Notes under the pieces: generated by a model
The model's input: the letters and a program-made list of their open reading frames with translations, nothing else
Told to the model about the DNA's origin: nothing
The model's database searches: none
In this document: positions 2,427 to 16,013 of the stretch, piece after piece
How positions within the stretch are numbered: position 1 is the stretch's first letter
How the letters are laid out: each line of letters opens with the position of its first letter
Source: Acidaminococcaceae bacterium
Lineage (GTDB): Bacteria; Bacillota; Negativicutes; Acidaminococcales; Acidaminococcaceae
NCBI GenBank assembly: GCA_028693975.1
Contig: JAQUUF010000001.1
Location: forward strand, 1 to 28,230
Length of the DNA: 28,230 bases
Direction: 5' to 3'
Made by a program: the position numbers and the translations under genes

Positions 2427-2450
2427 GGGGAAAAGTGGTGAAAAGTGGAG
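2425..2450 (+). promoter_or_regulatory. MraZ operator: three direct repeats at 10-bp period
   Basis: ATGGGG-aaaa-GTGGTG-aaaa-GTGGAG immediately downstream of the -10. Matches known MraZ repeats (TGGGN in E. coli, GTGG[A/T]G in B. subtilis). Confidence 0.85.
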
Positions 2451-2473
2451 AAATAGAGGTAGGTGTAGTTGGC

Positions 2474-2905
2474 ATGTTAATGGGTGAATTTCAACATAAA
2501 ATTGATGCAAAAGGGCGACTTTTTATGCCAGCGAAACTACGTGAAGGACTAGGATCTGACTTTATCATTACCAAAGGTTTGGATAAATGTTTGTCTGTTT
2601 ATTCCCAGACAGAGTGGGAGAAGCTTTTGGCAAAATTTGCTGCGGCTCCCAAGTCCAAGCAAAGTGTGAGACAAGTATCCAGATTCTTATTTGGTAATGC
2701 TTGCCAAGCAGAAGTAGATAAGCAAGGAAGAATATTGTTGCCGGCTGCTCTGCGTGAGCACGCTGGGTTGAATAAAGAAGTCGTTATCGTCGGCGTTGGC
2801 ACTACTGCTGAAATCTGGGATAGTGAGGCTTGGCATGATTACAACGCTGAAGTAAGCAAAGATGTTACCGACATAGTAGAACAGTTGGTGGACTTGGGCA
2901 TTTAA
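2474..2905 (+). CDS. mraZ: Transcriptional regulator MraZ
   Basis: MLMGEFQHKIDAKGRL...VDKQGRI, two AbrB-like repeats, 143 aa from ATG 2474. The ORF-track GTG at 2435 lies inside the operator. Confidence 0.97.
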   Translation: MLMGEFQHKIDAKGRLFMPAKLREGLGSDFIITKGLDKCLSVYSQTEWEKLLAKFAAAPKSKQSVRQVSRFLFGNACQAEVDKQGRILLPAALREHAGLNKEVVIVGVGTTAEIWDSEAWHDYNAEVSKDVTDIVEQLVDLGI

Positions 2906-2929
2906 AACTTTTACGGACAGGTGATAAAA

Positions 2930-3859
2930 ATGGAATTTGTTCATAAGAGCGTGATGCTGACTGAAAGCATTGACTGGATGATAACTGATCGGGACGGTAC
3001 ATATATGGACTGTACAATGGGGGGAGCTGGACACTCACTTGCTTTTGCTCAGCTCCTTGCACCCACTGCGACATTGATTGGCATAGATCAAGATGCTGAT
3101 GCTATTGCTGCTGCTACTGACAAGCTACAGGCGGCACCTTGCCAAGTACAAATACGCCGAGCCAATTTTAAAAATTTTGACCAGGTGCTGGATGAACTGG
3201 GCATTGAAAAGTTAACAGGCATCTTTTTTGATTTAGGAGTATCTTCCTACCAGTTAGATACACCTGAGAGAGGCTTTTCTTATATGCATGATGGGCCACT
3301 GGATATGAGAATGGATAAAAGGCAAAAGTTGGATGCAGCCTATGTGGTCAATCATTACAAAGAAGAAGCTTTGGCCGATGTTATTTATCGTTATGGTGAA
3401 GAGCGCTGGAGCAAGAGAATTGCGCAGTTTATCGTAGCCGCCCGACAGGAAAAACAGTTGGTTACCACTGGAGAATTGGTAGATGTTATAAAAAAAGCAA
3501 TTCCTAAGGGAGCCAGGCAGAATGGTCCTCATCCAGCTAAGCGTACTTTTCAGGCATTGCGTATTGAAGTTAATAGTGAATTAAGTATTTTAGCCGACGT
3601 TGTTACCAGAGCTGTAGATAGATTGGCAATAGGTGGACGTATCGGTGTTATAACCTTCCATTCGTTGGAGGACAGAATTGTGAAACAAACTTTGGCCCAA
3701 CTAGCCAAAGGCTGCATTTGTCCACCAGAATTACCGGTGTGCGTTTGCGGCAAAAAACCTAAAATCAAGAAGGCTATTTCCATTAAGCCTTCCGCTGAAG
3801 AAGTAGAAAAAAATCCGCGCTCTCGCAGTGCAAGATTACGAGGCGGCATCAGAATATAA
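2930..3859 (+). CDS. rsmH: 16S rRNA m4C1402 methyltransferase
   Basis: DCTMGGAGHS, DLGVSSYQLD, FQALRIEVN and NPRSRSARLR motifs. SD AGGTGA precedes ATG 2930. Confidence 0.97.
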   Translation: MEFVHKSVMLTESIDWMITDRDGTYMDCTMGGAGHSLAFAQLLAPTATLIGIDQDADAIAAATDKLQAAPCQVQIRRANFKNFDQVLDELGIEKLTGIFFDLGVSSYQLDTPERGFSYMHDGPLDMRMDKRQKLDAAYVVNHYKEEALADVIYRYGEERWSKRIAQFIVAARQEKQLVTTGELVDVIKKAIPKGARQNGPHPAKRTFQALRIEVNSELSILADVVTRAVDRLAIGGRIGVITFHSLEDRIVKQTLAQLAKGCICPPELPVCVCGKKPKIKKAISIKPSAEEVEKNPRSRSARLRGGIRI

Positions 3860-3876
3860 TGGAAGGGGGAACTGAA

Positions 3877-4284
3877 GTGCTGGCAAGGAAATATGATTAT
3901 TACGAAGCATGGGAAGAGGAAAGAGTATTCAGCAAAAATAAAAGAAAGATTGCTGTTGAAAATAAAAAAGAAGCGAGTACAACTAATGCCAGAACAGTTT
4001 TTGTGGTCGTTGCTGTGGGGATTGCCTGCTATTTGTGTGGCGTAGTACTTGGTTCGGCCTATTTTAGAGGTTGCAATGCTTTGGTAGCCCTGAAGATTCA
4101 AGAAGAAGACCTGTTGGCTAAGAACGAGGCCTTGCAGATAGATGTAGACAAACTAAGAAATCCCGCGAGAATTACTGACATCGCCTCTAGACAATTGGGG
4201 ATGAGTACTGCCCGCAACAATATATATGTACAGGCCGACAGCAATAAAATTGCTTACGATGGCTATGCTTACGCTAAAAAATAG
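3877..4284 (+). CDS. ftsL: Cell division protein FtsL-like
   Basis: Position after rsmH. Charged N-terminus, one TM segment, then a coiled-coil (LLAKNEALQIDVDKLRNPARITDIASRQLGM). GTG start after SD GGAAGGGGG. Confidence 0.8.
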   Translation: MLARKYDYYEAWEEERVFSKNKRKIAVENKKEASTTNARTVFVVVAVGIACYLCGVVLGSAYFRGCNALVALKIQEEDLLAKNEALQIDVDKLRNPARITDIASRQLGMSTARNNIYVQADSNKIAYDGYAYAKK

Positions 4285-4312
4285 AGGCAGCCACTTTTGG
4301 CTGCCTTTTTTT
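4285..4312 (+). terminator. Intrinsic terminator inside the dcw cluster (ftsL/murE junction)
   Basis: AGGCAGCCA (4285-4293), CTTT loop, TGGCTGCCT (4298-4306), running into a 7-T tract (4306-4312). Confidence 0.8.
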
Positions 4313-4323
4313 GGAGGGGAATC

Positions 4324-5805
4324 ATGGAAAAACAACTAACAGAATTACTGAAATTAATACCTAAGGCTAAGGTAAGAGGCACTACAGATAAGCTACTTAC
4401 TGACTTAACCACAGATTCGAGAACTGTGGTTGCTGGCAGCTTGTTTATTTGTGTCAAGGGAGTTCATGTAGACGGTCACAAATATATTGACAAGGCCTAT
4501 GCTGCCGGAGCCCGTTGCGTTATCGTGGAAGAGAATGTTAAAGTCCCGGATGATATGACGGTGATTAAGGTGCCAGACGCTCACGCAGCTATGATAGCTA
4601 TTGCTCCTTGGTTCTATGACTATCCGGGCAAAAAAATGCGTATGTTGGGAATTACGGGTACTAATGGCAAGACTACTACAACCAATATTGTGAGACTGAT
4701 TTTACGTAAGGCCGGTTTTAAAGTGGGATTAATTGGTACTATTAACATTATGATAGAAGATGAGATAGAGATATCTCACAATACTACACCTGATGTAGTG
4801 GATCTGCAAAAAATACTCTATCGTATGGAGCAGGCAGGATGCCAGTACGTAGTCATGGAGGTTTCTTCTCATGCGTTAGCCCTCAATAGAGTGGCTGGTT
4901 GTGAGTATGATGTGGCCGCGCTGACGAATATTACACAAGACCATTTGGATTTCCATGGTACATTTGAGAATTATCGTGAAGCTAAGGCCTTGCTTTTTAC
5001 GCATTTGCACGAAGGTGAAAAAACAAATAAATGTGCTATTTTTAACATGGATGACTATAGTTCGGCCATTATCAAAGCTAGGACCAAGACGCCGATTATC
5101 ACCTATGGTAAAACTCCAAGTAATGATATATATCCGTTAGATTTTGAAGTGGCTGCCAAGCATATGCATCTGAAACTACATACACCGGTAGGCGAAATGG
5201 ATATGCTGCTGCATATTACCGGTGAATTTAATGTCTATAATGTAATGACAGCTGTGGCTGTTTGCTTAGCAGAAAAAATTAGTAAAGATATTATTGTCAG
5301 TGTGCTTGACGGTTTCACTGGTGTTCCTGGTCGGTTCCAATTAGTGGAAGCAGGGCAACCATACACGGTTATCGTTGATTATGCTCATACTCCGGACGGA
5401 TTAGATAATGTTCTCAAAACAGCTAGGGAAATAACCAAAGGCAAATTGTGGGCAGTATTTGGTTGCGGTGGAGATAGAGATAACAAGAAGAGACCAATAA
5501 TGGGACGTATAGCCTTGGAGCTGGCTGATAATTTGGTGGTTACTTCAGATAATCCTCGCAGTGAAGATCCAGAGCTAATTATTAAGGATATAGAAAAAGG
5601 TCTGGCCGGTGCGCCTAGTCAAAAGCAAATTGTAAAAATAACAGATAGGCATGAAGCTATTGAGTTCGCTATGGAACATGCAGCTGCCGACGATGTTATT
5701 TTAATTGCGGGCAAGGGACATGAGAATTACCAGATATTAAAAGATAAAACCATTCATTTTGATGATTGTGAAGTAGTCCGCGACTACTGGAAGGATAGAA
5801 AATAA
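4324..5805 (+). CDS. murE: UDP-MurNAc-dipeptide--meso-DAP ligase
   Basis: GTNGKTTT, MEVSSHAL, VDYAHTPDG, DNPR (mDAP specificity motif) and AGKGHE. SD GGAGGGG precedes ATG 4324. Confidence 0.97.
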   Translation: MEKQLTELLKLIPKAKVRGTTDKLLTDLTTDSRTVVAGSLFICVKGVHVDGHKYIDKAYAAGARCVIVEENVKVPDDMTVIKVPDAHAAMIAIAPWFYDYPGKKMRMLGITGTNGKTTTTNIVRLILRKAGFKVGLIGTINIMIEDEIEISHNTTPDVVDLQKILYRMEQAGCQYVVMEVSSHALALNRVAGCEYDVAALTNITQDHLDFHGTFENYREAKALLFTHLHEGEKTNKCAIFNMDDYSSAIIKARTKTPIITYGKTPSNDIYPLDFEVAAKHMHLKLHTPVGEMDMLLHITGEFNVYNVMTAVAVCLAEKISKDIIVSVLDGFTGVPGRFQLVEAGQPYTVIVDYAHTPDGLDNVLKTAREITKGKLWAVFGCGGDRDNKKRPIMGRIALELADNLVVTSDNPRSEDPELIIKDIEKGLAGAPSQKQIVKITDRHEAIEFAMEHAAADDVILIAGKGHENYQILKDKTIHFDDCEVVRDYWKDRK

Positions 5806-5807
5806 TT

Positions 5808-7172
5808 ATGTTTACCTTGAGCCAAGTGCTTGCTGCCACAGCAGGACAGACACAATTACAGGGAGAAATAGCCTTTACCGGTATAACCACAGATTCTCGC
5901 AATGTTAAACCGGGGGAGTTATTTGTGGCTCTCCAAGGAGAGAAGTTCGATGGACATGCTTATTGTGCCAGGGCTTTGGCGCAGGGAGCGGTAGCAGTTT
6001 TGGTGTCTGCAATAGCACCGGGGTATACAGCGAAAGCAATTGTGGTAAAGGATACGCTCTGGGCTTATCAACAAATTGCTAAGGCCTATCGTTTGGCTCA
6101 TAAAAACATTAAGGTTGTGGCTATTACCGGTTCCAATGGTAAAACTTCAACCAAAGATTTGATTGCTGCTTGTCTGGAGAAAAAATACAAGGTTATCAAA
6201 ACGCAGGCTAATTTCAACAATGAGATTGGCTTACCCAAGACACTGCTCAGCATTCAAGAAGATACAGAGATAGCTGTAGTGGAGATGGGTATGCGAGGAT
6301 TTGGGCAAATCAAAGCTTTGAAGGATTTGGCTCAGCCGGATATTGTGGTTATAACCAACGTAGGAGAGACTCATATGGAGCTTTTGGGCAGTATGGCTAA
6401 TATAGCCAAGGCTAAAAGTGAAATATTGGAGAATTTGACAGCAAATAACATCGCAGTACTTAATGGCGATGATTTTTATATTGCTAAGATGAAAACTGCT
6501 GCAAAGACTGTAACATATGGTATAATAAAGGACAATGTTGTCCAAGGTGGTAATATCAATGTGACCGGTCAGGGCACTACTTTTTCCTATGTTAATAGAA
6601 TTAATGGCAAGAATTTTACTGTTCAGATGCCCCTAGTGGGGGAGCACAACGTAATGAATGCTTTGGCAGCTATCAGTGTGGCTGAGGTTTTACAAGTCCC
6701 GGACCAAACTATTGTAGAAGCATTAGCTCATGCTCACTTGACGGAAAAGCGTCAAGAGGTTAAGCGTTATGGTACAGTGACTGCCATTAATGATGCCTAT
6801 AATGCTTCCCCTGCTTCTATGACTAGTGCCTTGAAAACTCTGCAACAATTGGCTTTGAGTAAGAATTCCGGGCGCGAAGTAGCGGTGCTGGCAGATATGC
6901 TGGAATTGGGTGCAATCTCTAAAGAAGCGCATACCAAAGTAGGACAACAGGCAGCGCACTATGGTGTGAAGTTGCTTCTAACCTATGGTCAAGAGGCACG
7001 TTATATTTATGAAGCGGCTAGGGGATTGGGCGTCGAAGCCTATTATCTCAATAATAAAGAAGAAGCGGCCGTTTGCCTGCGTCAACACCTTGAGGAAGGG
7101 GACACTATATTGTTCAAAGGGTCTCATTCTATGGAAGTTGATCGTGTGCTGGAATTGGCTTTGGGAAAATAA
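5808..7172 (+). CDS. murF: UDP-MurNAc-tripeptide--D-Ala-D-Ala ligase
   Basis: GSNGKTSTKD, NNEIGLP, VEMGM, NDAYNASP, MLELG and KGSHS motifs. Confidence 0.97.
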   Translation: MFTLSQVLAATAGQTQLQGEIAFTGITTDSRNVKPGELFVALQGEKFDGHAYCARALAQGAVAVLVSAIAPGYTAKAIVVKDTLWAYQQIAKAYRLAHKNIKVVAITGSNGKTSTKDLIAACLEKKYKVIKTQANFNNEIGLPKTLLSIQEDTEIAVVEMGMRGFGQIKALKDLAQPDIVVITNVGETHMELLGSMANIAKAKSEILENLTANNIAVLNGDDFYIAKMKTAAKTVTYGIIKDNVVQGGNINVTGQGTTFSYVNRINGKNFTVQMPLVGEHNVMNALAAISVAEVLQVPDQTIVEALAHAHLTEKRQEVKRYGTVTAINDAYNASPASMTSALKTLQQLALSKNSGREVAVLADMLELGAISKEAHTKVGQQAAHYGVKLLLTYGQEARYIYEAARGLGVEAYYLNNKEEAAVCLRQHLEEGDTILFKGSHSMEVDRVLELALGK

Positions 7173-7199
7173 TTTTGAAGTGAAGAAAGAAGTGAAAGA

Positions 7200-8162
7200 A
7201 TGATTTTGCATGGTTTGTGGGCGTTGCTTACGGCTTTTGCTATTTGTGCAGTAGTTGGACCTTGGCTGATACCGGAACTGCATAAACTGCATTTTGGGCA
7301 AAGCATTAGGGGTTGTGGTCCTAAAGAGCATCAAAAAAAGAGCGGCACTCCGACTATGGGCGGCTTGATGATGATTGCCGCTATTGTAATTAGTACTTTT
7401 GTCTGGTGTGAAATAACGCCTGCTTTAGCCATAGCTTTGTGGCTTTTGGTGGGGCACGGAGTTATTGGATTCATAGATGACTTTATTAAGGTAGTACTTA
7501 AACGTAATTTAGGGTTGACGACCAAACAAAAATTGTTGTTACAAATAATAGTGGCTGTAGTGTATATGCTCTATCCAGGAGATGTTGGAGAGAGTCATAT
7601 GCTGTGGATTCCCGGATCTAGTCTGCAAATCGATCTGGGAATTTGGCATTATTTGTTGATTTTAATTTTGTTGGTAGGAACTACTAATGCGGTTAATTTG
7701 ACTGATGGTTTAGATGGACTGGTGTCATGGGTGACGGTGCCTGTTTCGTTGGCGTTTGCTTTCATTGCTCATACTGTTGGGCAAGATGGCCTATTTATCA
7801 TGGCATTGGCTATCACGGGAAGTTGTTTGGGATTTTTGCTTTTCAACCATTATCCAGCTAAGGTTTTTATGGGAGATACAGGTTCTTTGGCTTTAGGTGG
7901 AGGTATCGCAGCACTGGCTTTATTGACCAAGACAGAGTTACTACTGGTGATTATCGGTGGTGTTTATGTCTTAGAGGCCTTGTCGGTTATTATCCAAGTT
8001 ACATATTTTAAGCTTAGTGGTGGTAAAAGAATTTTTCGCATGAGTCCACTGCACCATCATTTTGAATTGGGTGGATGGCGTGAAAATAAAGTTGTTTTTA
8101 TTTTTACTTTGGTTAGTATAATTTTTTCTTTGTTGGGAGTTATTTTATTTTTGCTAAAGTGA
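7200..8162 (+). CDS. mraY: Phospho-N-acetylmuramoyl-pentapeptide transferase
   Basis: KSGTPTMGG, GFIDD, NAVNLTDGLDG, FMGDTGS and PLHHHFE motifs. Multi-TM protein. Confidence 0.97.
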   Translation: MILHGLWALLTAFAICAVVGPWLIPELHKLHFGQSIRGCGPKEHQKKSGTPTMGGLMMIAAIVISTFVWCEITPALAIALWLLVGHGVIGFIDDFIKVVLKRNLGLTTKQKLLLQIIVAVVYMLYPGDVGESHMLWIPGSSLQIDLGIWHYLLILILLVGTTNAVNLTDGLDGLVSWVTVPVSLAFAFIAHTVGQDGLFIMALAITGSCLGFLLFNHYPAKVFMGDTGSLALGGGIAALALLTKTELLLVIIGGVYVLEALSVIIQVTYFKLSGGKRIFRMSPLHHHFELGGWRENKVVFIFTLVSIIFSLLGVILFLLK

Positions 8163-8175
8163 GGAAGTGTGTGTT

Positions 8176-9531
8176 ATGACAGAAGAACGATACATTCTTG
8201 TCTATGGCGCCGGCATTAGCGGTTGCGGCGTAGCCAAAACTCTGGCTGCACGTGGCGAAAAAGTTGTGCTGTTTAACGACACAGTTAAAACAATAGAAGA
8301 AGGTTTGGTGCAAATATTAGAAAAAGCGGGCGGTACCTATAGCTGCCAAACTAGCTTTGAAGAATGGCTTCCGCGGACGAAGCTGGTCATTGTATCGCCG
8401 GGAATTACCTTTGAAAATCCCTTAACTGAGGCTGCCCGCGCTAGAGGCATTGAAGTTATTGGCGAAGTGGAAGAAGCTAGCCGATTGTATTCAGGTCATT
8501 GGATTGGTATTACAGGTACTAACGGTAAGACGACTACGACTACTCTAGTTGGCGAGATGCTGCGTAGCTTACCATGCCAGGTGCGGGTAGGCGGTAATAT
8601 AGGAGCTGCTCTTTCCTCGGAAGCTCAAGGCTTGAGTAATCAGGATTGGTTGGTAGCAGAACTGTCCAGTTTCCAGCTAGAGGGAGTAACATCTTTTAGA
8701 CCAGATATTGCTCTTATCTTGAATATTACGCCAGACCATATGGAAAGACATCATACTATGGAAAAATATACTGCGGCTAAGGCTAATATTTTCGCTCACC
8801 AAAAAGCGGAAGATATTCTTATCCTCAATTATGATAATAAGTTGACTAAGTCGCTAGCTAGTCAGGCGCATAGCCAAATATGTTTTATAAGTCGTAAGGA
8901 AATATTGTCTCAAGGTATTTTTCTCGAAAACGGTAAATTTGTGATAAAATGGAACGGCATTAGACAAGAAGTTTGTTCTGTTAGTGATATGCAGATTTTT
9001 GGTACTCACAATGAGGAAAATGCGCTAGGCGCTATCGCTTGTGCTTTCTTTGCTGGAGTAGATATTAAGGTTATGCAACAGGTGCTAAGGAGCTTTCAAG
9101 GAGTAGAGCATCGTTTGGAATATGTTACTACTATCCACGGTGTTCCTTATTACAACGATTCCAAAGCAACCAATCCCGATTCCACGATAAAAGCTTTGGA
9201 GTCTTTCCCCGGTCATGTTGTGCTCTTGGCGGGAGGCCACGATAAATTAACAGATTTGACTGAAATGATGGAGTTAATTCGCATTAAAACCGACGCCTTA
9301 ATTCTGCTAGGTGCAGCCCAGCAGAGATTCTATCAAGCTGCTCTGAAGGCTCAGATCCAGAATATTTATCTAGTGACAACGTTTCAAGAAGCAGTGGAGA
9401 AGGCCTATGAATTGGCCCATGAGCCTCAGGTGGTAGTATTGTCACCGGCTTGTTCTTCGTACGATATGTTTGACAACTTTCCCCAAAGGGGAAGAGTATT
9501 TAAAGAATTAGTGCGTAAATTGCCTCAATGA
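8176..9531 (+). CDS. murD: UDP-MurNAc-L-Ala--D-Glu ligase
   Basis: GTNGKTTT, GGNIG, ELSSFQL, NDSKATN and LSPACSSYDMF motifs. Confidence 0.97.
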   Translation: MTEERYILVYGAGISGCGVAKTLAARGEKVVLFNDTVKTIEEGLVQILEKAGGTYSCQTSFEEWLPRTKLVIVSPGITFENPLTEAARARGIEVIGEVEEASRLYSGHWIGITGTNGKTTTTTLVGEMLRSLPCQVRVGGNIGAALSSEAQGLSNQDWLVAELSSFQLEGVTSFRPDIALILNITPDHMERHHTMEKYTAAKANIFAHQKAEDILILNYDNKLTKSLASQAHSQICFISRKEILSQGIFLENGKFVIKWNGIRQEVCSVSDMQIFGTHNEENALGAIACAFFAGVDIKVMQQVLRSFQGVEHRLEYVTTIHGVPYYNDSKATNPDSTIKALESFPGHVVLLAGGHDKLTDLTEMMELIRIKTDALILLGAAQQRFYQAALKAQIQNIYLVTTFQEAVEKAYELAHEPQVVVLSPACSSYDMFDNFPQRGRVFKELVRKLPQ

Positions 9532-9548
9532 TTTAAGGGGGATTTTTT

Positions 9549-10661
9549 GTGAAGATTGTTATTTCGGGTGGCGGTACAGGCGGACATATTTATCCAGCAC
9601 TGACCATAGCTGCTCAACTGCAAAAAGTAAACCCAAAGGCAGAAATTACCTTTGTGGGTACCAAAGCAGGCTTGGAGAAAGATATTGTACCGCGTTATGG
9701 TTATCCTTTGGAATATATTTCCGTGGCGGGATTTGAGCGCAAATTTAGCTTGCAGACAATTTGTTCGGCAGGTAAATTATTGGTAGGCATGGTGCAGGCT
9801 TTTAACTTATTGCGGCGACTTAAGCCGGATTTGGTCATCGGTACCGGCGGGTATGTGTGTGGCCCTATTTTGTTTTGGGCTGCGATGCGCGGCGTACCTG
9901 CTTGCATTCAGGAGCAGAATGCTATGCCAGGTGTGACTAATAAAATCTTAGCTCGTTTTGTGGATAAGATCTTTTTGGGTTACAAAGAAGGCGCGCGTTA
10001 CTTCCCCGGTGAAGCCAAGAAAGACTATACAGGGAATCCCGTTCGCAGTGAGGTTATGTCTTGTAGTAAGGAAAAGGGCTGGGAAACTTTTGGCCTAGAC
10101 CCAGCGAAGGTGACGATTTTAGCTTTTGGTGGTAGTCGCGGTGCCAGAACAATTAATGCGGCTATGGCCCAGATGGAAACAAATATGGCTGGTCGTACAG
10201 ATGTACAGATTCTTCACGCTACCGGCAGCTTGGATTATGAGAAATATATGGCGGCCTTGGATGAGAGAGTCAAGACGGCGGAGAATATCAAAATTCTCCC
10301 TTATATTCATGCTATGCCAGCAGCACTAGCTGTGGCAGATTTGGCAGTATCTCGTGCAGGAGCCATTGGCTTGGCCGAGCTGATGGTTAAGGGAGTACCG
10401 TCAATTCTGATACCTTATCCCTATGCCACGGCCAATCATCAAGAGTTTAATGCTAGAGCTCTGGAGAATGTGGGGGCGGCCAAGGTGATTTTGAATAAAG
10501 ATTTAACTGGTGTCAAATTACAGGAGACTATAGAAAATCTTCTATTGCACAAAGATGAAATGACGGCCATGCATCAGGCGGCAGTCAAGGCAGGGATGCC
10601 GCAAGCTGCGGCTGATATTGCGGCCAAGGCCTTAGAACTAGTAGAGAAAAAGGGGAAATAA
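9549..10661 (+). CDS. murG: Lipid I N-acetylglucosamine transferase
   Basis: GGGTGGHIYP, GTGGYV, QEQN, FGGSRGA and HQEFNA motifs. GTG start. Confidence 0.97.
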   Translation: MKIVISGGGTGGHIYPALTIAAQLQKVNPKAEITFVGTKAGLEKDIVPRYGYPLEYISVAGFERKFSLQTICSAGKLLVGMVQAFNLLRRLKPDLVIGTGGYVCGPILFWAAMRGVPACIQEQNAMPGVTNKILARFVDKIFLGYKEGARYFPGEAKKDYTGNPVRSEVMSCSKEKGWETFGLDPAKVTILAFGGSRGARTINAAMAQMETNMAGRTDVQILHATGSLDYEKYMAALDERVKTAENIKILPYIHAMPAALAVADLAVSRAGAIGLAELMVKGVPSILIPYPYATANHQEFNARALENVGAAKVILNKDLTGVKLQETIENLLLHKDEMTAMHQAAVKAGMPQAAADIAAKALELVEKKGK

Positions 10662-10664
10662 AAG

Positions 10665-12974
10665 ATGTTGGACCAAATTAAGAATATACATTTCATCGGC
10701 ATTGGTGGCGTGGGCATGAGTGCATTGGCCTATGTCCTGATCAAGAGAGGCTACCATGTGACTGGTTCTGATGCCAAGGCAGGTTATATGGCCAATAAGT
10801 TAGCTGACGAGGGAGCGGTGGTCTTCATAGGTCATGCTGCTTGCCAGGTAGAAGGTGCTGAAGCCGTAGTAATCTCTACAGCTATCAGCCAGGATAATCC
10901 TGAATTAGTGGAAGCCAAAAAACGTCAGATTCCCATCTTACATCGCAGTGATGTATTGGCTTATTTGATTAATAAGAATAAAGGTATTGCAGTAGCCGGT
11001 GCCCACGGCAAGACTACAACTAGCTCTATGTTGGCCTGTATTTGCAGTGCAGCTCAGCTAGATCCTACAGTTGTTGTAGGCGGGCTAGTGAAGAATTTGG
11101 GAGGCAATGCTCTTAATGGACAAGGTGACCTAGTAGTGGCTGAGGCTGATGAGAGCGATGGTTCTTTTTTGAAGTTCCATCCGTTCATCGAGGTTATTAC
11201 TAATATCGAAAATGACCATTTGGACCATTACGGCAGTGAGGAAAAAATCCAAGAAGCTTTTGCAGAATTTACTCGTAATATGAAAGATGGCGGCAGTGTA
11301 GTGCTGTGTTTTGATAACGCCAAAGTTCGCTCTTTGGTCAAAAACAAAGAGAAACATGTAATTACTTATGGTATCGATTGTCCTACGGCAGATTATGTAG
11401 CCAAACACATTGATTATCAAGCCAATGGTACTTTGTTTGATGTATATTATAAAGACGAATTCTTAGCTCAGGCCAGGCTGCAGATTCCAGGCAAACATAA
11501 TGTTCTTAATGCCTTGGGTGCTATCGCTGCCTCCAGAATATTGGGTATTGAATTGGCAAGCATTTTACAAACGCTGTCTATTTTTACCGGTGCCGCAAGA
11601 CGTTTCGAAACCAAAGGTAAGATTAATGGTATCTGGGTAGTGGATGATTATGCACATCATCCCACAGAAATTAAAGCAACTTTGGTAGCAGCCAAGCAAA
11701 CCAAACCGCAAAGATTAATTTGTGCGTTTCAACCTCATAGATATACCAGAACGCAATTGTTAATAGATGAATTTAGTAATGCTTTTGTAGAGTGCGATGA
11801 ACTTATTTTGGCCGATATTTATGCAGCTAGCGAAACACCATTACCAGGAATTACCAGCGATTATTTGGCTCAAAAAATACATGAGAAAACAGGCCAACAG
11901 GTACGAGTTATCCATAGTATAGATGATATTGTGATCTATCTTGAACAAGAGGCTCAGGCAGGAGATTTGATTATTACGATGGGTGCCGGTGATATTTATC
12001 TGGCTGGTGATAGATTGGTAAAAAAGTTAAATGGGAGAGAAAAAATGACTAAAGAACGTATCGCAGTAGTAATGGGAGGACCTTCTAAGGAAGCAGAAAT
12101 TTCTATGTTGACAGGCAATGCTATTTTGACCGCATTACTTGAAAAAGGCTATGATGCTGTTGCCTTGGAGTTAAACCCAGAACATTTTGTAGAAGAACTA
12201 CGCGCTACCGGTGCTACTATGGTATTTAATGCAGTCCATGGTCTCTATGGTGAAGATGGCCGCTTGCAAAGTGTGCTAGAAATGCTGAATATGCCTTATA
12301 CAGGTTCAGGGGTTTTGGCTAGTGCGCTTTCTATGGATAAGGTCTATACCAAGAGAATTTTTAGTGAAGAAAATGTTTCTACAGCTAGGTACATGGTTGT
12401 CAACAAACGCGACCAAGCTACGGCGGTAGAGCAGATCCTGGCTCAGTTTACGCTTCCTTTGGTGGTCAAAGCATCTTCCCAAGGTTCAAGTATTGGTGTG
12501 GAGATAGTGAAAGAAGCAGAAGCTTTGCCTCATGCTCTAGAAGATGCCTTCTCCTATGGCGATGAAATTCTGATTGAGGAATATATCAAAGGCAAGGAAG
12601 CTACAGTTGTAGTTATGATGACTAAGGATGGTCCTCAGGCTTTACCGGTTATTCAAATAGTACCTCATTCCGGTGCTTATGATTTTAAATCTAAATATAC
12701 CAAGGGTGCTACGGATTATTTGGTACCGGCTCCTTTTGACGAAGCTACCACCAAAGCTACTCAGGCAGTGGGTGTGGCAGCGTATAAGGCTCTCGGCTGT
12801 AATGGAGTTGCTCGTACAGATGTGATGCTAGATGAACATAATGTTCCTTATGCCCTAGAAGTTAATTCCGTGCCGGGTATGACAGCTACTTCTCTTGTAC
12901 CTAAGGCAGCGGCTGCAGTGGGAATCAGCTTCCCTGATTTGTGTGCGATGATAGTGGAATCTGTAAAAAAATAA
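10665..12974 (+). CDS. murC-ddl: In-frame fusion of MurC (about aa 1-455) and D-Ala-D-Ala ligase Ddl (from Met461)
   Basis: MurC motifs GIGGVGMS, GAHGKTTTS, EADESDG, DDYAHHPTEI, FQPHRYTRT. Ddl motifs GGPSKEAEIS, HGLYGEDG, QGSSIGV, YDFKSKY, EVNSVPG. No stop between the two parts. Confidence 0.9.
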   Translation: MLDQIKNIHFIGIGGVGMSALAYVLIKRGYHVTGSDAKAGYMANKLADEGAVVFIGHAACQVEGAEAVVISTAISQDNPELVEAKKRQIPILHRSDVLAYLINKNKGIAVAGAHGKTTTSSMLACICSAAQLDPTVVVGGLVKNLGGNALNGQGDLVVAEADESDGSFLKFHPFIEVITNIENDHLDHYGSEEKIQEAFAEFTRNMKDGGSVVLCFDNAKVRSLVKNKEKHVITYGIDCPTADYVAKHIDYQANGTLFDVYYKDEFLAQARLQIPGKHNVLNALGAIAASRILGIELASILQTLSIFTGAARRFETKGKINGIWVVDDYAHHPTEIKATLVAAKQTKPQRLICAFQPHRYTRTQLLIDEFSNAFVECDELILADIYAASETPLPGITSDYLAQKIHEKTGQQVRVIHSIDDIVIYLEQEAQAGDLIITMGAGDIYLAGDRLVKKLNGREKMTKERIAVVMGGPSKEAEISMLTGNAILTALLEKGYDAVALELNPEHFVEELRATGATMVFNAVHGLYGEDGRLQSVLEMLNMPYTGSGVLASALSMDKVYTKRIFSEENVSTARYMVVNKRDQATAVEQILAQFTLPLVVKASSQGSSIGVEIVKEAEALPHALEDAFSYGDEILIEEYIKGKEATVVVMMTKDGPQALPVIQIVPHSGAYDFKSKYTKGATDYLVPAPFDEATTKATQAVGVAAYKALGCNGVARTDVMLDEHNVPYALEVNSVPGMTATSLVPKAAAAVGISFPDLCAMIVESVKK

Positions 12975-12989: not shown

Positions 12990-13748
12990 GTGGCAATCAA
13001 GCAGGAACTTACGCATCGACTTACTGACAGATGCAAAGACAACCGGACTAGAACTATCTTTTATGTTCTTTGTTTTGTAGTGCTATTTTTGGCAGGATAC
13101 TTTTTGGTACACCGTCCTTGGTTCGCCTTCGGCCGCATTGCCGTAGAAGGTGGTAAAGCTTTGACGGTAGAAGATGTTGTCAGTGTAGCAGGTATCCAAC
13201 AGCCAATTAATTTATTTACGGTAGACAGAGCCAAACTAGAGCATGTACTTAGCCATGACTTAAGAGTAGAAAAAGTGACAACCAAGTATGCTTGGCCCAA
13301 TATTCTAGAGGTAATTATTACTGATAGACGCCCTGCTGGTTACTTTGTCTGTGCCTATGGTGGTTTCGCCAAAGTAGATTACAATGGTTTGGTGCTATCA
13401 GTAGGTAAGGGCATCAAAGACGCGTCTGCACCATTTGTGGAGGGCTATGAGCTGGGAAACGTTTATAGTGGTGATAAGATTGCGGACGAGGATGTGCTAC
13501 AGCTATTGCAGTTTCTCAGCAAATTGGATCAGGCTATTACCGCTGAGATAGTAGAAATAGTATTAGACAAAGATGCCAATATAGAGGTGGTTCTTTCTTC
13601 CGGATTGCCAATCAAACTGGGTAAAGCCGTAAATATTGAATCTAAGCGAGATACATTTGTAACTGTATGTAATGAATTAAAAACTAAGAAAATTAATGCT
13701 CAATATATTGATTTGAGTTTTAACAAACCTTTTGTCAAAGTTAATTAA
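12990..13748 (+). CDS. ftsQ: Cell division protein FtsQ/DivIB
   Basis: Single TM, POTRA-like segment (IAVEGG...WPNILEVIITDRRP) and C-terminal YIDLS. GTG start after SD GGAGGT. Syntenic position. Confidence 0.85.
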   Translation: MAIKQELTHRLTDRCKDNRTRTIFYVLCFVVLFLAGYFLVHRPWFAFGRIAVEGGKALTVEDVVSVAGIQQPINLFTVDRAKLEHVLSHDLRVEKVTTKYAWPNILEVIITDRRPAGYFVCAYGGFAKVDYNGLVLSVGKGIKDASAPFVEGYELGNVYSGDKIADEDVLQLLQFLSKLDQAITAEIVEIVLDKDANIEVVLSSGLPIKLGKAVNIESKRDTFVTVCNELKTKKINAQYIDLSFNKPFVKVN

Positions 13749-13761
13749 AGGAGGGCCTGTA

Positions 13762-14457
13762 ATGGGTAAATACAAGAAGCCAGCCAATATTTTGCTTTTT
13801 GTGGTCTGCGTTATTTTGGGTATTATGCTGGCAACCCAATTCAAAAGCGCGGAACAGGCTCGTTCAACTCTGTCACAACAGAGAGCAGAGGATTTGGTTG
13901 ACCGTCTGAAAGAGGCTGAAAAAGAAAAGAAAGCTCTGGCTGAAGAATTAAAAAAGCTTCAGTCTGAGAGTACAGTAGATATTAGTGCGCAAGAGAGAAT
14001 AGCTCTCAAATCTAAAGCTGGTGAAGTGGCGCTGGTTGGTCCTGGTGTGAAAGTAACTGTGGACGATAGTAAAGTGGTAGCTAAGCCGGGCGATAATGCT
14101 AATCTCTATATCATACATGATGATGATTTGTTGCGTTTGATTAACGAGCTCAGAGCAGCTGGCGCCGAGGCTATTTCTATTAATGACCAAAGACTCCTAG
14201 ATGTTTCGGAGATACGTTGTGCAGGTCCAACTGTTTCTGTTAATAATAATCGCTTCACACCACCTTATGTTATCGCAGCTATTGGTGACCCCAAGACACT
14301 TGAGAGTGCTTTGAGGCTCCGCGGCGGCGTAGTGGATACTCTGAAATTCTGGGGTATTACAGTGAATGTCGAAAAAGGTGAAGCTATAACCGTACCTGCT
14401 TATAAGGGAACACGGCATTTTGAGTATGCCAAAGTAAAGGACGGTGACAAACAATGA
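13762..14457 (+). CDS. DUF881 family protein (YlxW/YlxX-like)
   Basis: N-terminal TM, coiled coil, GPGVKVTVDD, IHDDDL...NELRAAGAEAISINDQR, PPYVIAAIGDP. SD AAGGAGG precedes ATG 13762. Confidence 0.9.
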   Translation: MGKYKKPANILLFVVCVILGIMLATQFKSAEQARSTLSQQRAEDLVDRLKEAEKEKKALAEELKKLQSESTVDISAQERIALKSKAGEVALVGPGVKVTVDDSKVVAKPGDNANLYIIHDDDLLRLINELRAAGAEAISINDQRLLDVSEIRCAGPTVSVNNNRFTPPYVIAAIGDPKTLESALRLRGGVVDTLKFWGITVNVEKGEAITVPAYKGTRHFEYAKVKDGDKQ

Positions 14458-14780
14458 TTTATTTAGTAATCGGTGTTGCCGCTGGTGTTTTGATTGGTAT
14501 GCAATTGCCTAATGTACCGCCGGAATATATCAAATTATTGTCTGTAGCGTTGATGGCGGCCTTAGATGCTGCACTAGGTGGCATCAGAGCTGCCAAAGAA
14601 GATGTTTTTGACAGCGAGATTTTTATTTCTGGCTTTTTTGTTAATGCCATTATGGCTGTTTTCATTTGTTTTATGGGTATGAAACTAGGTATCGACTTGT
14701 ATCTGGTAGCTATTCTGGCCTTTGGCCTGCGAATGTTTACCAATATTGCCATTATCCGACGTTTGTACTTAAAAAAGTAG
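14454..14780 (+). CDS. sbp: DUF1290 / small basic protein Sbp-like membrane protein
   Basis: LLSVALMAALDAALGGIRA...FISGFFVNA...FGLRMFTNIAIIRR pattern. ATGA overlap with DUF881. Confidence 0.8.
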   Translation: MIYLVIGVAAGVLIGMQLPNVPPEYIKLLSVALMAALDAALGGIRAAKEDVFDSEIFISGFFVNAIMAVFICFMGMKLGIDLYLVAILAFGLRMFTNIAIIRRLYLKK

Positions 14781-14806
14781 AAAATACAAGAAAATACAAG
14801 AAAAAA
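14771..14806 (+). repeat. 10-bp periodic A-tract array including a perfect AAAATACAAG x2 tandem
   Basis: AAAAAAGTAG | AAAATACAAG | AAAATACAAG | AAAAAAGTGT. Confidence 0.8.
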
Positions 14807-14809
14807 GTG

Positions 14810-14837
14810 TGTACAACTTGCCCGAGAATGATATAAT
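14810..14837 (+). promoter_or_regulatory. Candidate internal promoter for ftsZ
   Basis: TGTACA (14810-14815), 16-bp spacer, and extended -10 TGaTATAAT (14829-14837). A second TATAAT lies at 14848-14853. Confidence 0.55.
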
Positions 14838-14906
14838 ATAGTATGTATATAATATTGAGGCATATTAAGGTGGGATTATACACTTTAGTTAGGGAGGAGC
14901 ATAAAA

Positions 14907-16013
14907 ATGTTCGATGTGGAAAACAACACTGAGCAATCATTAGCTAAGATTAAAGTCGTGGGCGTCGGCGGTGGCGGTAATAACGCTGTCAATCGCATGA
15001 TCGCAGCAGGACTAAAAGGGGTGGAATTCATTGCAGTTAACTGTGATGCACAAGCTTTACTTTTGTCCAAGGCTCCTAATCGTATTCAAATAGGTGAGGA
15101 ATTAACTAGAGGTCTCGGTGCCGGCGCTAATCCCGAAATTGGTGAAAGTGCAGCGGAGGAATCTCGTGATCAAATTACCGAAGCTTTAAAAGGTTCTGAT
15201 ATGGTATTCGTTACTTGCGGTATGGGTGGTGGCACTGGTACAGGTGCAGCTTCTATTATTGCTGAATGCGCTAAACAGATAGGTGCTTTGACTGTTGGTG
15301 TAGTAACCAAACCATTTACTTTTGAAGGACGCAAACGTTATAATCAAGCAGAGCATGGTATTGCTAATTTAAAAGCTAAGGTTGATGCCTTGATTACTGT
15401 TCCTAATGATAGATTATTACAAGTTGTTGACAGAAGAACTTCTATGTTAGAAGCTTTCCAAGTGGCTGATGATGTTTTGCGCCAAGGCGTTCAGGGTATT
15501 ACTGATTTGATCGGTGTTCCAGGACTTATCAATGCCGACTTTAATGATGTGAAAACGGTGATGACTAATTCTGGTAGTGCTTTGATGGGTATTGGTATAG
15601 CCAAAGGTGACGGCAGCGCCGCAGCTGCTGCAGAAGCAGCTATTAAGAGTCCTTTGCTGGAGAGTACAATTGATGGAGCACACGGAGCTCTGTTCAATAT
15701 TACCGGTGGTCCTAATCTGACCTTGTCAGACGTCAATGAGGCAGCGTCAATTGTGTCTGATGCTGTTGACCCAGATGCAACGGTTATTTTCGGTGCTACT
15801 ATTGACGAGAATATGGAAGACGAAATTCGCATTACTGTTATAGCGACCGGTATCGATGGTGGCAAGAGTCCATCCGCTCCTTCAGCACCTTCTTTTATTG
15901 GCAAACCGAAATCTTTTGTTGAAACCAAGAAGGATGAACAAACTCTTAAGACAGGGATGAGAGGGTTTAGTGCTCCTACTACCGAGATTCCACCTTGGAT
16001 TAAAAGTAAATAA
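14907..16013 (+). CDS. ftsZ: Cell division protein FtsZ
   Basis: [17 protein letters not shown], tubulin signature [23 protein letters not shown] and C-terminal EIPPW. Confidence 0.99.

Follow-up and report, generated by a model that had tools for sequence, protein, structure and literature searches.

In other bacteria, a SEDS gene (ftsW or spoVE) occupies the position between murD and murG, and in other Firmicutes the ftsL-murE position of the dcw cluster holds the gene of a class B PBP (bPBP), ftsI or spoVD. Bacillus subtilis has spoVD and spoVE within the cluster and its vegetative ftsW elsewhere, adjoining pycA. The dcw SEDS of this species is sporulation-specific, the division SEDS being encoded outside the cluster (PMC10693644). 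Clostridia show FtsW-PbpB(P1) synteny (Garcia et al. 2021, Mol Biol Evol 38:2396), and Clostridioides difficile has a divisome without FtsW/FtsI that is driven by the class A PBP1 (PMC10693644). The pattern of gene loss in non-spore-forming relatives of the organism studied here was described by Shrestha et al. 2023 (Nat Commun 14:7975, PMC10693644). The dcw clusters of the non-sporulating Negativicutes Acidaminococcus fermentans, Phascolarctobacterium succinatutens and Veillonella parvula contain neither SEDS nor bPBP gene, and these species have no spo0A or spoIIE and carry two SEDS and two bPBPs elsewhere, in adjacent pairs (PMC10693644). Supplementary Data 2 of that study lists two Acidaminococcaceae species with such a cluster; according to its text, Negativicutes seem to possess functional orthologues of FtsW and FtsI, and in its synteny table the two pairs of Acidaminococcus are both entered in the RodA/MrdA columns (PMC10693644).

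The window analysed here, 28,230 nt of DNA, comes from a gut-type Acidaminococcaceae MAG (class Negativicutes; 72% complete, 193 contigs, contamination estimate 0.64%) that represents a new, genus-level lineage, its MurC-Ddl being about 70% identical to that of the nearest relatives. From an open reading frame listing and Pfam scans of the window, the cluster reads mraZ-rsmH-ftsL-murE-murF-mraY-murD-murG-murC/ddl-ftsQ-DUF881-sbp-ftsZ (Table 1). The DivIC/FtsL-type Pfam match of ftsL reached 25.2 bits, below the 28.9 cut-off, and ftsL homologues occupy the same position in the loci of the family. In many Negativicutes loci, a single protein matches the murC-ddl fusion from end to end.

Table 1. 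Features of the dcw cluster in the window.
Feature	Position	Strand	Basis
mraZ	2435..2905	+	Pfam MraZ, 140 bits
rsmH (mraW)	2921..3859	+	Pfam Methyltransf_5, 374 bits
ftsL, 141 aa, bitopic, coiled-coil type	3859..4284	+	position after rsmH; sub-threshold DivIC match
ftsL-murE gap, 39 nt	4285..4323	+	terminator-like hairpin and U7 run, murE ribosome-binding site
murE	4324..5805	+	three Mur ligase domains; ATG 4324 with ribosome-binding site
murF	5808..7172	+	Mur ligase domains; order in relatives by tblastn
mraY	7200..8162	+	Glycos_transf_4 and MraY_sig1
murD	8167..9531	+	MurD-like_N and Mur ligase M and C domains
murD-murG gap, 17 nt	9532..9548	+	sequence
murG	9549..10661	+	Glyco_transf_28 N- and C-terminal domains
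murC-ddl fusion, 769 aa	10665..12974	+	Mur ligase and D-Ala-D-Ala ligase N/C domains, one frame
ftsQ/divIB	12990..13748	+	POTRA_1 and FtsQ_DivIB_C
DUF881 protein (YlxW/YlxX-like)	13732..14457	+	Pfam DUF881, 165 bits
small basic protein sbp (DUF1290)	14454..14780	+	Pfam DUF1290, 117 bits
ftsZ	14907..16013	+	Tubulin and FtsZ_C

The ATG of murE lies 39 nt downstream of the ftsL stop codon (TAG, 4282-4284), and the GTG of murG (9549) follows the murD stop codon (9529-9531) by 17 nt. Because the gaps are this short, a SEDS or bPBP gene is absent at both positions: neither gap has a frame long enough for one, even as a fragment. This confirmed, from the reading frames and the Pfam scans, the original prediction that the cluster is devoid of the FtsI and FtsW genes. 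Likewise, no SpoVE/SpoVD pair is present inside the cluster of the MAG, both positions being empty of SEDS and bPBP genes. Remnants of deleted genes were also considered and rejected, as 39 and 17 nt leave no room for them.

About 35 Negativicutes-type loci share this gene order and likewise lack SEDS and bPBP genes; they include L023, on a complete Acidaminococcaceae chromosome, and L024 and L035, from Acidaminococcus isolates. The missing genes are thus not an assembly artefact. A cluster of this kind recurs in all sampled relatives devoid of sporulation genes, each of which has lost its SEDS gene from the dcw position. Two sampled relatives with sporulation genes carry SpoVE between murD and murG (scores of 479 and 483 with the SpoVE model, cut-off 448.8) and a bPBP at the other position; among the genomes sampled, these two were the only ones with spoIVA and spo0A above cut-off, and neither gene exceeded its cut-off in the MAG or in a complete genome from its family. 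The absence of both dcw genes from their separate positions is a lineage-wide, correlated event. The earlier suggestion of a concerted loss or relocation thus stands as far as the correlated absence at both positions is concerned, though not in the sense that a second pair is missing. At least two SEDS matches were found in all 121 sampled genomes of the class. The genomes without sporulation genes contain exactly two bPBPs and mostly two SEDS, which is a minimal elongation-plus-division set. The MAG shows no material difference from the non-sporulating Negativicutes already catalogued, and its division-gene layout is already known, having been published for non-spore-forming relatives. It conforms to the published rule whereby SEDS and bPBP genes within a Firmicute dcw cluster are a sporulation pair lost with sporulation, the division pair being elsewhere; the lack of ftsI and ftsW in a Firmicute dcw cluster is in itself little information on the divisome.

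A profile search of the genome contigs detected SEDS genes on contigs C109 and C89, a C-terminal SEDS fragment at the end of C150, bPBP genes on C109 and C150 and a class A PBP gene on C47. The MAG contains two SEDS-bPBP pairs, both on contigs other than that of the dcw cluster. The first is found on C109 in the order mreC-mreD-mrdA-rodA, with mreD and the 3' part of mreC upstream of the pair. Its PBP2 scored 592.5 with TIGR03423 (cut-off 455) and its RodA 395.3 with TIGR02210 (cut-off 336.7), and both proteins group in trees with E. coli MrdA and RodA. With both equivalog cut-offs passed and mreC-mreD adjoining, this is classified as the RodA-PBP2 elongasome pair. The expectation of a single SEDS-bPBP pair at the mre locus was not borne out, as 18 of 18 high-quality genomes of the same family also have at least two SEDS matches.

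The second pair extends over C89 and C150, in the order MOP-family flippase, M23 peptidase, trmB, SEDS, bPBP, fhs and folD. C89 ends in 223 nt that are 97.3% identical to the reverse-complemented start of C150, and because of this overlap the SEDS and bPBP genes are adjacent; the stop codon of the former and the start codon of the latter overlap as ATGA. With 6 SNPs within 31 nt of the overlap, the interruption looks like an assembly break due to strain variation. The fragment at the C150 end was considered as a third SEDS and rejected, as the 223-nt overlap makes it the same gene as on C89. The link between trmB and SEDS was kept in five of five genomes examined, and the order trmB-SEDS-bPBP-fhs recurs, at 53-86% identity, in a genome of the same family with 100% completeness. 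As in B. subtilis, the putative division SEDS gene lies outside the dcw cluster, its neighbour being trmB in the MAG and pycA in B. subtilis; in the latter, ftsI (pbpB) stays in the cluster, whereas the ftsI-type gene of the MAG is outside, in the SEDS operon. The arrangement resembles that of FtsW-PbpB(P1) in Clostridia, where a non-cluster ftsW also adjoins a dedicated class B PBP. In the other Negativicutes examined, the orthologous bPBP is 14-22 kb from ftsW or far off on the chromosome.

The C89 SEDS (408 aa) is a full-length match to PF01098, at 310.9 bits and covering positions 4-352 of the 356 in the profile. Its PEAHTDF sequence at 263, of the PExHTDF type that contains the catalytic Asp, and its QPSE motif at 115 align to P. 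aeruginosa FtsW. Its top model was ftsW (TIGR02614, 314.6), yet this score is below the equivalog cut-off of 337.5, and all five trmB-linked orthologues score 306-335. We considered this model as a discriminator of paralogues and rejected it, since the RodA of the MAG scored 313.2, against 314.6 for the C89 SEDS. Unlike the ftsW model, the rodA and spoVE models do separate the paralogues, and with these the C89 SEDS reached 285.6 (cut-off 336.7) and 258.2 (cut-off 448.8), respectively. The SEDS tree separates the trmB-linked clade (100/99) from that of RodA (100/98) and places E. coli FtsW beside the dcw SEDS, not with the trmB-linked clade; in this tree, built without Bacilli FtsW, the trmB-linked proteins form their own Negativicutes clade, the deep nodes being weak (65/52). 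The solved structures compared for SEDS include Gram-negative FtsW only. As judged from its sequence, the C89 SEDS is neither RodA nor SpoVE. It is called FtsW-like because these two are excluded and because its downstream partner, joined by the ATGA overlap, is a bPBP of the FtsI/SpoVD class, not through a positive model match.

This partner (about 672 aa, on C150) contains PBP_dimer (PF03717), Transpeptidase (PF00905) and C-terminal PASTA domains, and its motifs are intact: SVFK319 (SxxK), SVN374 (SxN) and KTG519. Compared with solved structures, it scored 299 bits with SpoVD, 239-267 bits with FtsI and 141 bits with MrdA. It is below the curated NCBIfam cut-offs for SpoVD (TIGR02214, 515.9; cut-off 688) and FtsI (NF011685, 285.7; cut-off 737). 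In the bPBP tree, it belongs to a Negativicutes-wide clade (100/100) and groups with E. coli FtsI, SpoVD and the dcw bPBPs (100/99), E. coli MrdA being on the opposite side. Its scores and phylogeny place it firmly in the FtsI/SpoVD class and not with PBP2/MrdA. The genome-wide search and the trees thus revealed, as far as sequence can judge, an FtsW-like/FtsI-like pair elsewhere in the genome, which refutes the original prediction of a non-canonical divisome devoid of FtsW-FtsI: the trmB-SEDS-bPBP operon encodes a non-RodA SEDS and an FtsI/SpoVD-class bPBP. Had the pair truly been absent, a rod-shaped bacterium with FtsQ, FtsL and FtsZ would have joined C. difficile as the second, independent example of a cell dividing with no canonical septal synthase.

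We consider it very probable that the SEDS and bPBP missing from the dcw cluster were a sporulation pair that has been lost, division being carried out by a relocated FtsW-like/FtsI-class pair and elongation by RodA-PBP2. The dcw-internal SEDS and class B PBP of Firmicutes would be the sporulation pair SpoVE/SpoVD, and lineages abandoning sporulation would have cleanly lost their genes, leaving the 39- and 17-nt gaps. Septal peptidoglycan would most likely be made by the FtsW-like SEDS and the PASTA-bearing FtsI-class bPBP of C89/C150, on which the FtsQ and FtsL of the window may act in the usual manner, while elongation would be served by the RodA-PBP2 pair beside mreC-mreD. That the trmB-linked pair works at the septum is what we infer from gene presence, protein classes, intact catalytic motifs, synteny and distribution, all of which are shown here; the literature searches yielded no experimental work on it in a Negativicute. 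More tentatively, and with somewhat less than even confidence, the trmB-linked SEDS could be a third SEDS lineage, distinct from RodA and from the ancestral dcw FtsW/SpoVE, that took over septal synthesis after the dcw pair had become sporulation-specific, the Acidaminococcaceae having secondarily joined the FtsI-class partner to it in an operon. The SEDS-bPBP operon would then be translationally coupled and, together with the neighbouring MOP-family flippase and M23 peptidase, might form a second small division-wall cluster.

We considered the possibility that the second pair is not septal, being for instance another pair for elongation or for stress, and that division depends mainly on a class A PBP, as in C. 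difficile. The SEDS being below the FtsW equivalog cut-off and in a clade of its own would fit with this, as would the RodA/MrdA columns of the table of Shrestha et al. Yet, the bPBP is firmly of the FtsI/SpoVD class (100/99), the pair being resolved here as a non-RodA SEDS with an FtsI-class bPBP, genomes without sporulation genes keep two bPBPs and mostly two SEDS, and the text of the same study credits Negativicutes with apparently functional FtsW/FtsI orthologues, making this explanation unlikely. Still less probable, to the point of being hardly tenable, is that FtsW-FtsI is absent altogether, with FtsQL directing RodA-PBP2 or a class A PBP in the synthesis of septal peptidoglycan. The empty dcw positions, the class A PBP on C47 and the precedent of C. 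difficile, likewise a Firmicute in which division does not rely on a dcw-encoded SEDS and bPBP, could be invoked in its favour; but C. difficile is without an extra SEDS-bPBP pair, whereas the MAG has one, which differs from RodA/PBP2 by model scores, solved-structure scores and trees and is conserved across the class, with the same locus in the 100%-complete genome. Finally, a misassembly that removed the cluster genes, or a contaminant origin of C89/C150, is scarcely credible: the MAG is fragmented and incomplete and the GC content of C150 (0.476) departs from the genome mean (0.436), but this is within about 2 sd, contamination is estimated at 0.64%, the layout is identical in the approximately 35 related loci, complete chromosomes among them, and the trmB-SEDS-bPBP-fhs order is found in the same family.

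Two minor features of the ftsL-murE gap can be mentioned. The murE start at TTG 4297 in the open reading frame listing is probably too early, the ATG at 4324 being preceded by the ribosome-binding site GGAGGGGA. The hairpin with its U7 run, at about 4283-4312, has a predicted fold of -19.2 kcal/mol (z -3.2), and a similar hairpin occurs in L023, L040, L025 and L035.

The dcw cluster lies on the forward strand of the window. The latter corresponds to contig C141 of a MAG with 193 contigs and a total length of 1.28 Mb (completeness 72%, contamination 0.64%). A six-frame ORF listing and Pfam scans gave the order mraZ, rsmH, ftsL, murE, murF, mraY, murD, murG, MurC-Ddl, ftsQ, DUF881, DUF1290 (the small basic protein) and ftsZ, followed by nrdR-nrdD-nrdG, lrgAB, prmA, rsmE and others. 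When the sequence was re-read, the gap sizes first reported proved exact: 39 nt separate the ftsL stop codon from the murE ATG, which has a strong ribosome-binding site, and 17 nt separate the murD stop from the murG start. Neither gap has room for a gene or a recognisable remnant. The ORF listing, the Pfam scans and the gap sequences confirmed that the cluster is devoid of ftsI and ftsW. In a scan of species-representative genomes, the MurC-Ddl protein best matched Acidaminococcaceae MAGs and Acidaminococcus isolates (63-71% identity), with 50-52% identity to Selenomonadaceae, Sporomusaceae and MAGs labelled Veillonellaceae. These matches place the organism in the family Acidaminococcaceae of the Negativicutes.

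The original prediction went on to propose a non-canonical divisome, should both families be absent genome-wide. Searches with PF01098 (SEDS) and PF00905 (transpeptidase) found both on other contigs of the MAG, the former on C109 and C89 and at the very end of C150 (its last 75 nt), and the latter on C150, C109 and C47, which carries a class A PBP. The order on C109 is mreC (3' part)-mreD-mrdA-rodA-radical SAM; its PBP2 scored 592.5 on TIGR03423 (cut-off 455) and its RodA 395.3 on TIGR02210 (cut-off 336.7). This is the elongation pair. On sequence evidence, the idea of a non-canonical divisome was refuted, on its own terms, by a second SEDS-bPBP (class B PBP) pair on C89 and C150.

These two contigs are a single locus, since the last 223 nt of C89 are 97.3% identical to the reverse-complemented start of C150, the six mismatches being SNPs confined to a 31-nt stretch in the C-terminal tail of the SEDS. 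Strain micro-heterogeneity appears to have interrupted the assembly precisely where the SEDS gene meets the bPBP gene. The combined order is MOP-family flippase (MurJ/Polysacc_synt type), M23 peptidase, trmB, SEDS (408 aa), bPBP (about 672 aa), fhs and folD, the stop codon of the SEDS gene overlapping the start codon of the bPBP gene (ATGA). The flippase, M23 peptidase and trmB form, with the pair, a small second cell-wall cluster.

The C89 SEDS protein scored best with the ftsW model (314.6, just below the cut-off of 337.5) and fell far under the cut-offs of the rodA (285.6) and spoVE (258.2) models. It retains the catalytic-Asp motif PEAHTDF and the QPSE motif, and its top match among solved structures was P. 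aeruginosa FtsW (185 bits; RodA, 166-175). The C150 bPBP comprises pedestal, transpeptidase and C-terminal PASTA domains with intact SxxK, SxN and KTG motifs; here the best solved structure was C. difficile SpoVD (299 bits), with many FtsI/PBP3 at 239-267 and MrdA at 141. A maximum-likelihood bPBP tree split in two (both support values per node given: 100/99), with E. coli MrdA and the C109 protein on the PBP2 side, and E. coli FtsI, Firmicutes dcw bPBPs and a Negativicutes-wide clade (100/100) including the C150 protein on the FtsI/SpoVD side. In the tree of SEDS proteins, that of C109 grouped with E. coli RodA (100/98) and that of C89 fell inside a trmB-linked Negativicutes clade (100/99), apart from RodA and from the dcw FtsW/SpoVE group, the deep nodes being weak (65/52). 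From these groupings, the C150 protein is clearly of the division/sporulation class, and the C89 protein is clearly not a RodA but a putative FtsW. The second pair would be the division pair in Negativicutes, the remaining uncertainty being functional.

A dcw cluster without SEDS and bPBP genes is an already known pattern in such organisms. In a survey of 494 Firmicutes (Shrestha et al. 2023, PMC10693644), Acidaminococcus fermentans and Phascolarctobacterium succinatutens are listed with no Spo0A, two SEDS, two bPBPs and none of these in the cluster (Supplementary Data 2). Their consecutive protein accessions indicate adjacent pairs. Both pairs are placed there in synteny-based RodA/MrdA columns, whereas the present analysis splits the two pairs filed together. 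In Clostridia, ftsW lies outside the cluster, syntenic with a dedicated bPBP (Garcia et al. 2021, PMC8136486).

Each of the 121 genomes sampled from the class had at least two SEDS matches, and each of the 18 from the family had two or three. Five genomes were compared in detail. Two (G023 and G017) have a SEDS gene between murD and murG passing the SpoVE cut-off of 448.8 (479 and 483), a bPBP gene before murE, and spoIVA and spo0A above cut-off. The other three (G115, of the same family and 100% complete, G097 and G084) have neither dcw gene, as in this MAG; spoIVA and spo0A above cut-off were found in none of G115, G097 and this MAG. All five Negativicutes genomes examined keep the trmB-SEDS link and carry a single C150 bPBP orthologue, but only in the same-family genome do these two genes lie side by side. 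The simplest history would be that a SpoVE/SpoVD pair once occupied the dcw cluster and vanished along with sporulation, the division pair having been encoded elsewhere throughout. A locus of Negativicutes bacterium UBA1444 looks like an intermediate state, since it keeps the bPBP gene upstream of murE with no SEDS gene between murD and murG; the two losses can thus be uncoupled and need not be simultaneous.

Coordinates of the features discussed
Feature	Sequence	Positions	Remarks
ftsL stop codon	window	4282-4284	
Hairpin	window	4283-4312	11-bp GC-rich stem then U7; -19.2 kcal/mol, z -3.2; immediately 3' of ftsL stop, 5' of murE ribosome-binding site
murE ATG	window	4324	
MurC-Ddl fusion	window	10665-12974	769 aa, between murG and ftsQ
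sbp-ftsZ gap	window	14781-14906	126 nt, no ftsA
Flippase, M23 peptidase, trmB	C89 (L008)	4065-7427	538 aa flippase, 297 aa peptidase; upstream of FtsW-like gene
Contig overlap	C89 (L008) / C150 (L009)	8467-8689 / 5232-5454	
SepF	C45 of the MAG	2019-2234	
UBA1444 locus	L016	1-7256	
Locus with divergent fourth SEDS	G023:C1 (L116)	2531141-2544124	SEDS of 421 aa, branch length 2.7

The hairpin after ftsL resembles a partial terminator or attenuator, apparently conserved, and lies where other Firmicutes carry the bPBP gene; a similar GCAGCC...GGCTGC hairpin with a T-run occupies the equivalent site in four (L023, L040, L025 and L035) of the 13 family loci checked. MurC-Ddl fusions, reported from Chlamydiae and Firmicutes (PMC10214165), occur in the Negativicutes-type loci without dcw SEDS and bPBP genes; murC and ddl are separate, about 1.4 kb apart, in the two sampled relatives with sporulation genes (L104 and L105). 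The MAG, G115 and G097 yielded no FtsA match exceeding the NCBIfam cut-off, just weak MreB-like ones; among the genomes checked, only G023 has an FtsA above it, adjoining its dcw cluster. The MAG does encode SepF, on C45. Next to the very divergent fourth SEDS of G023 lies a bPBP, likewise divergent, of about 470 aa.
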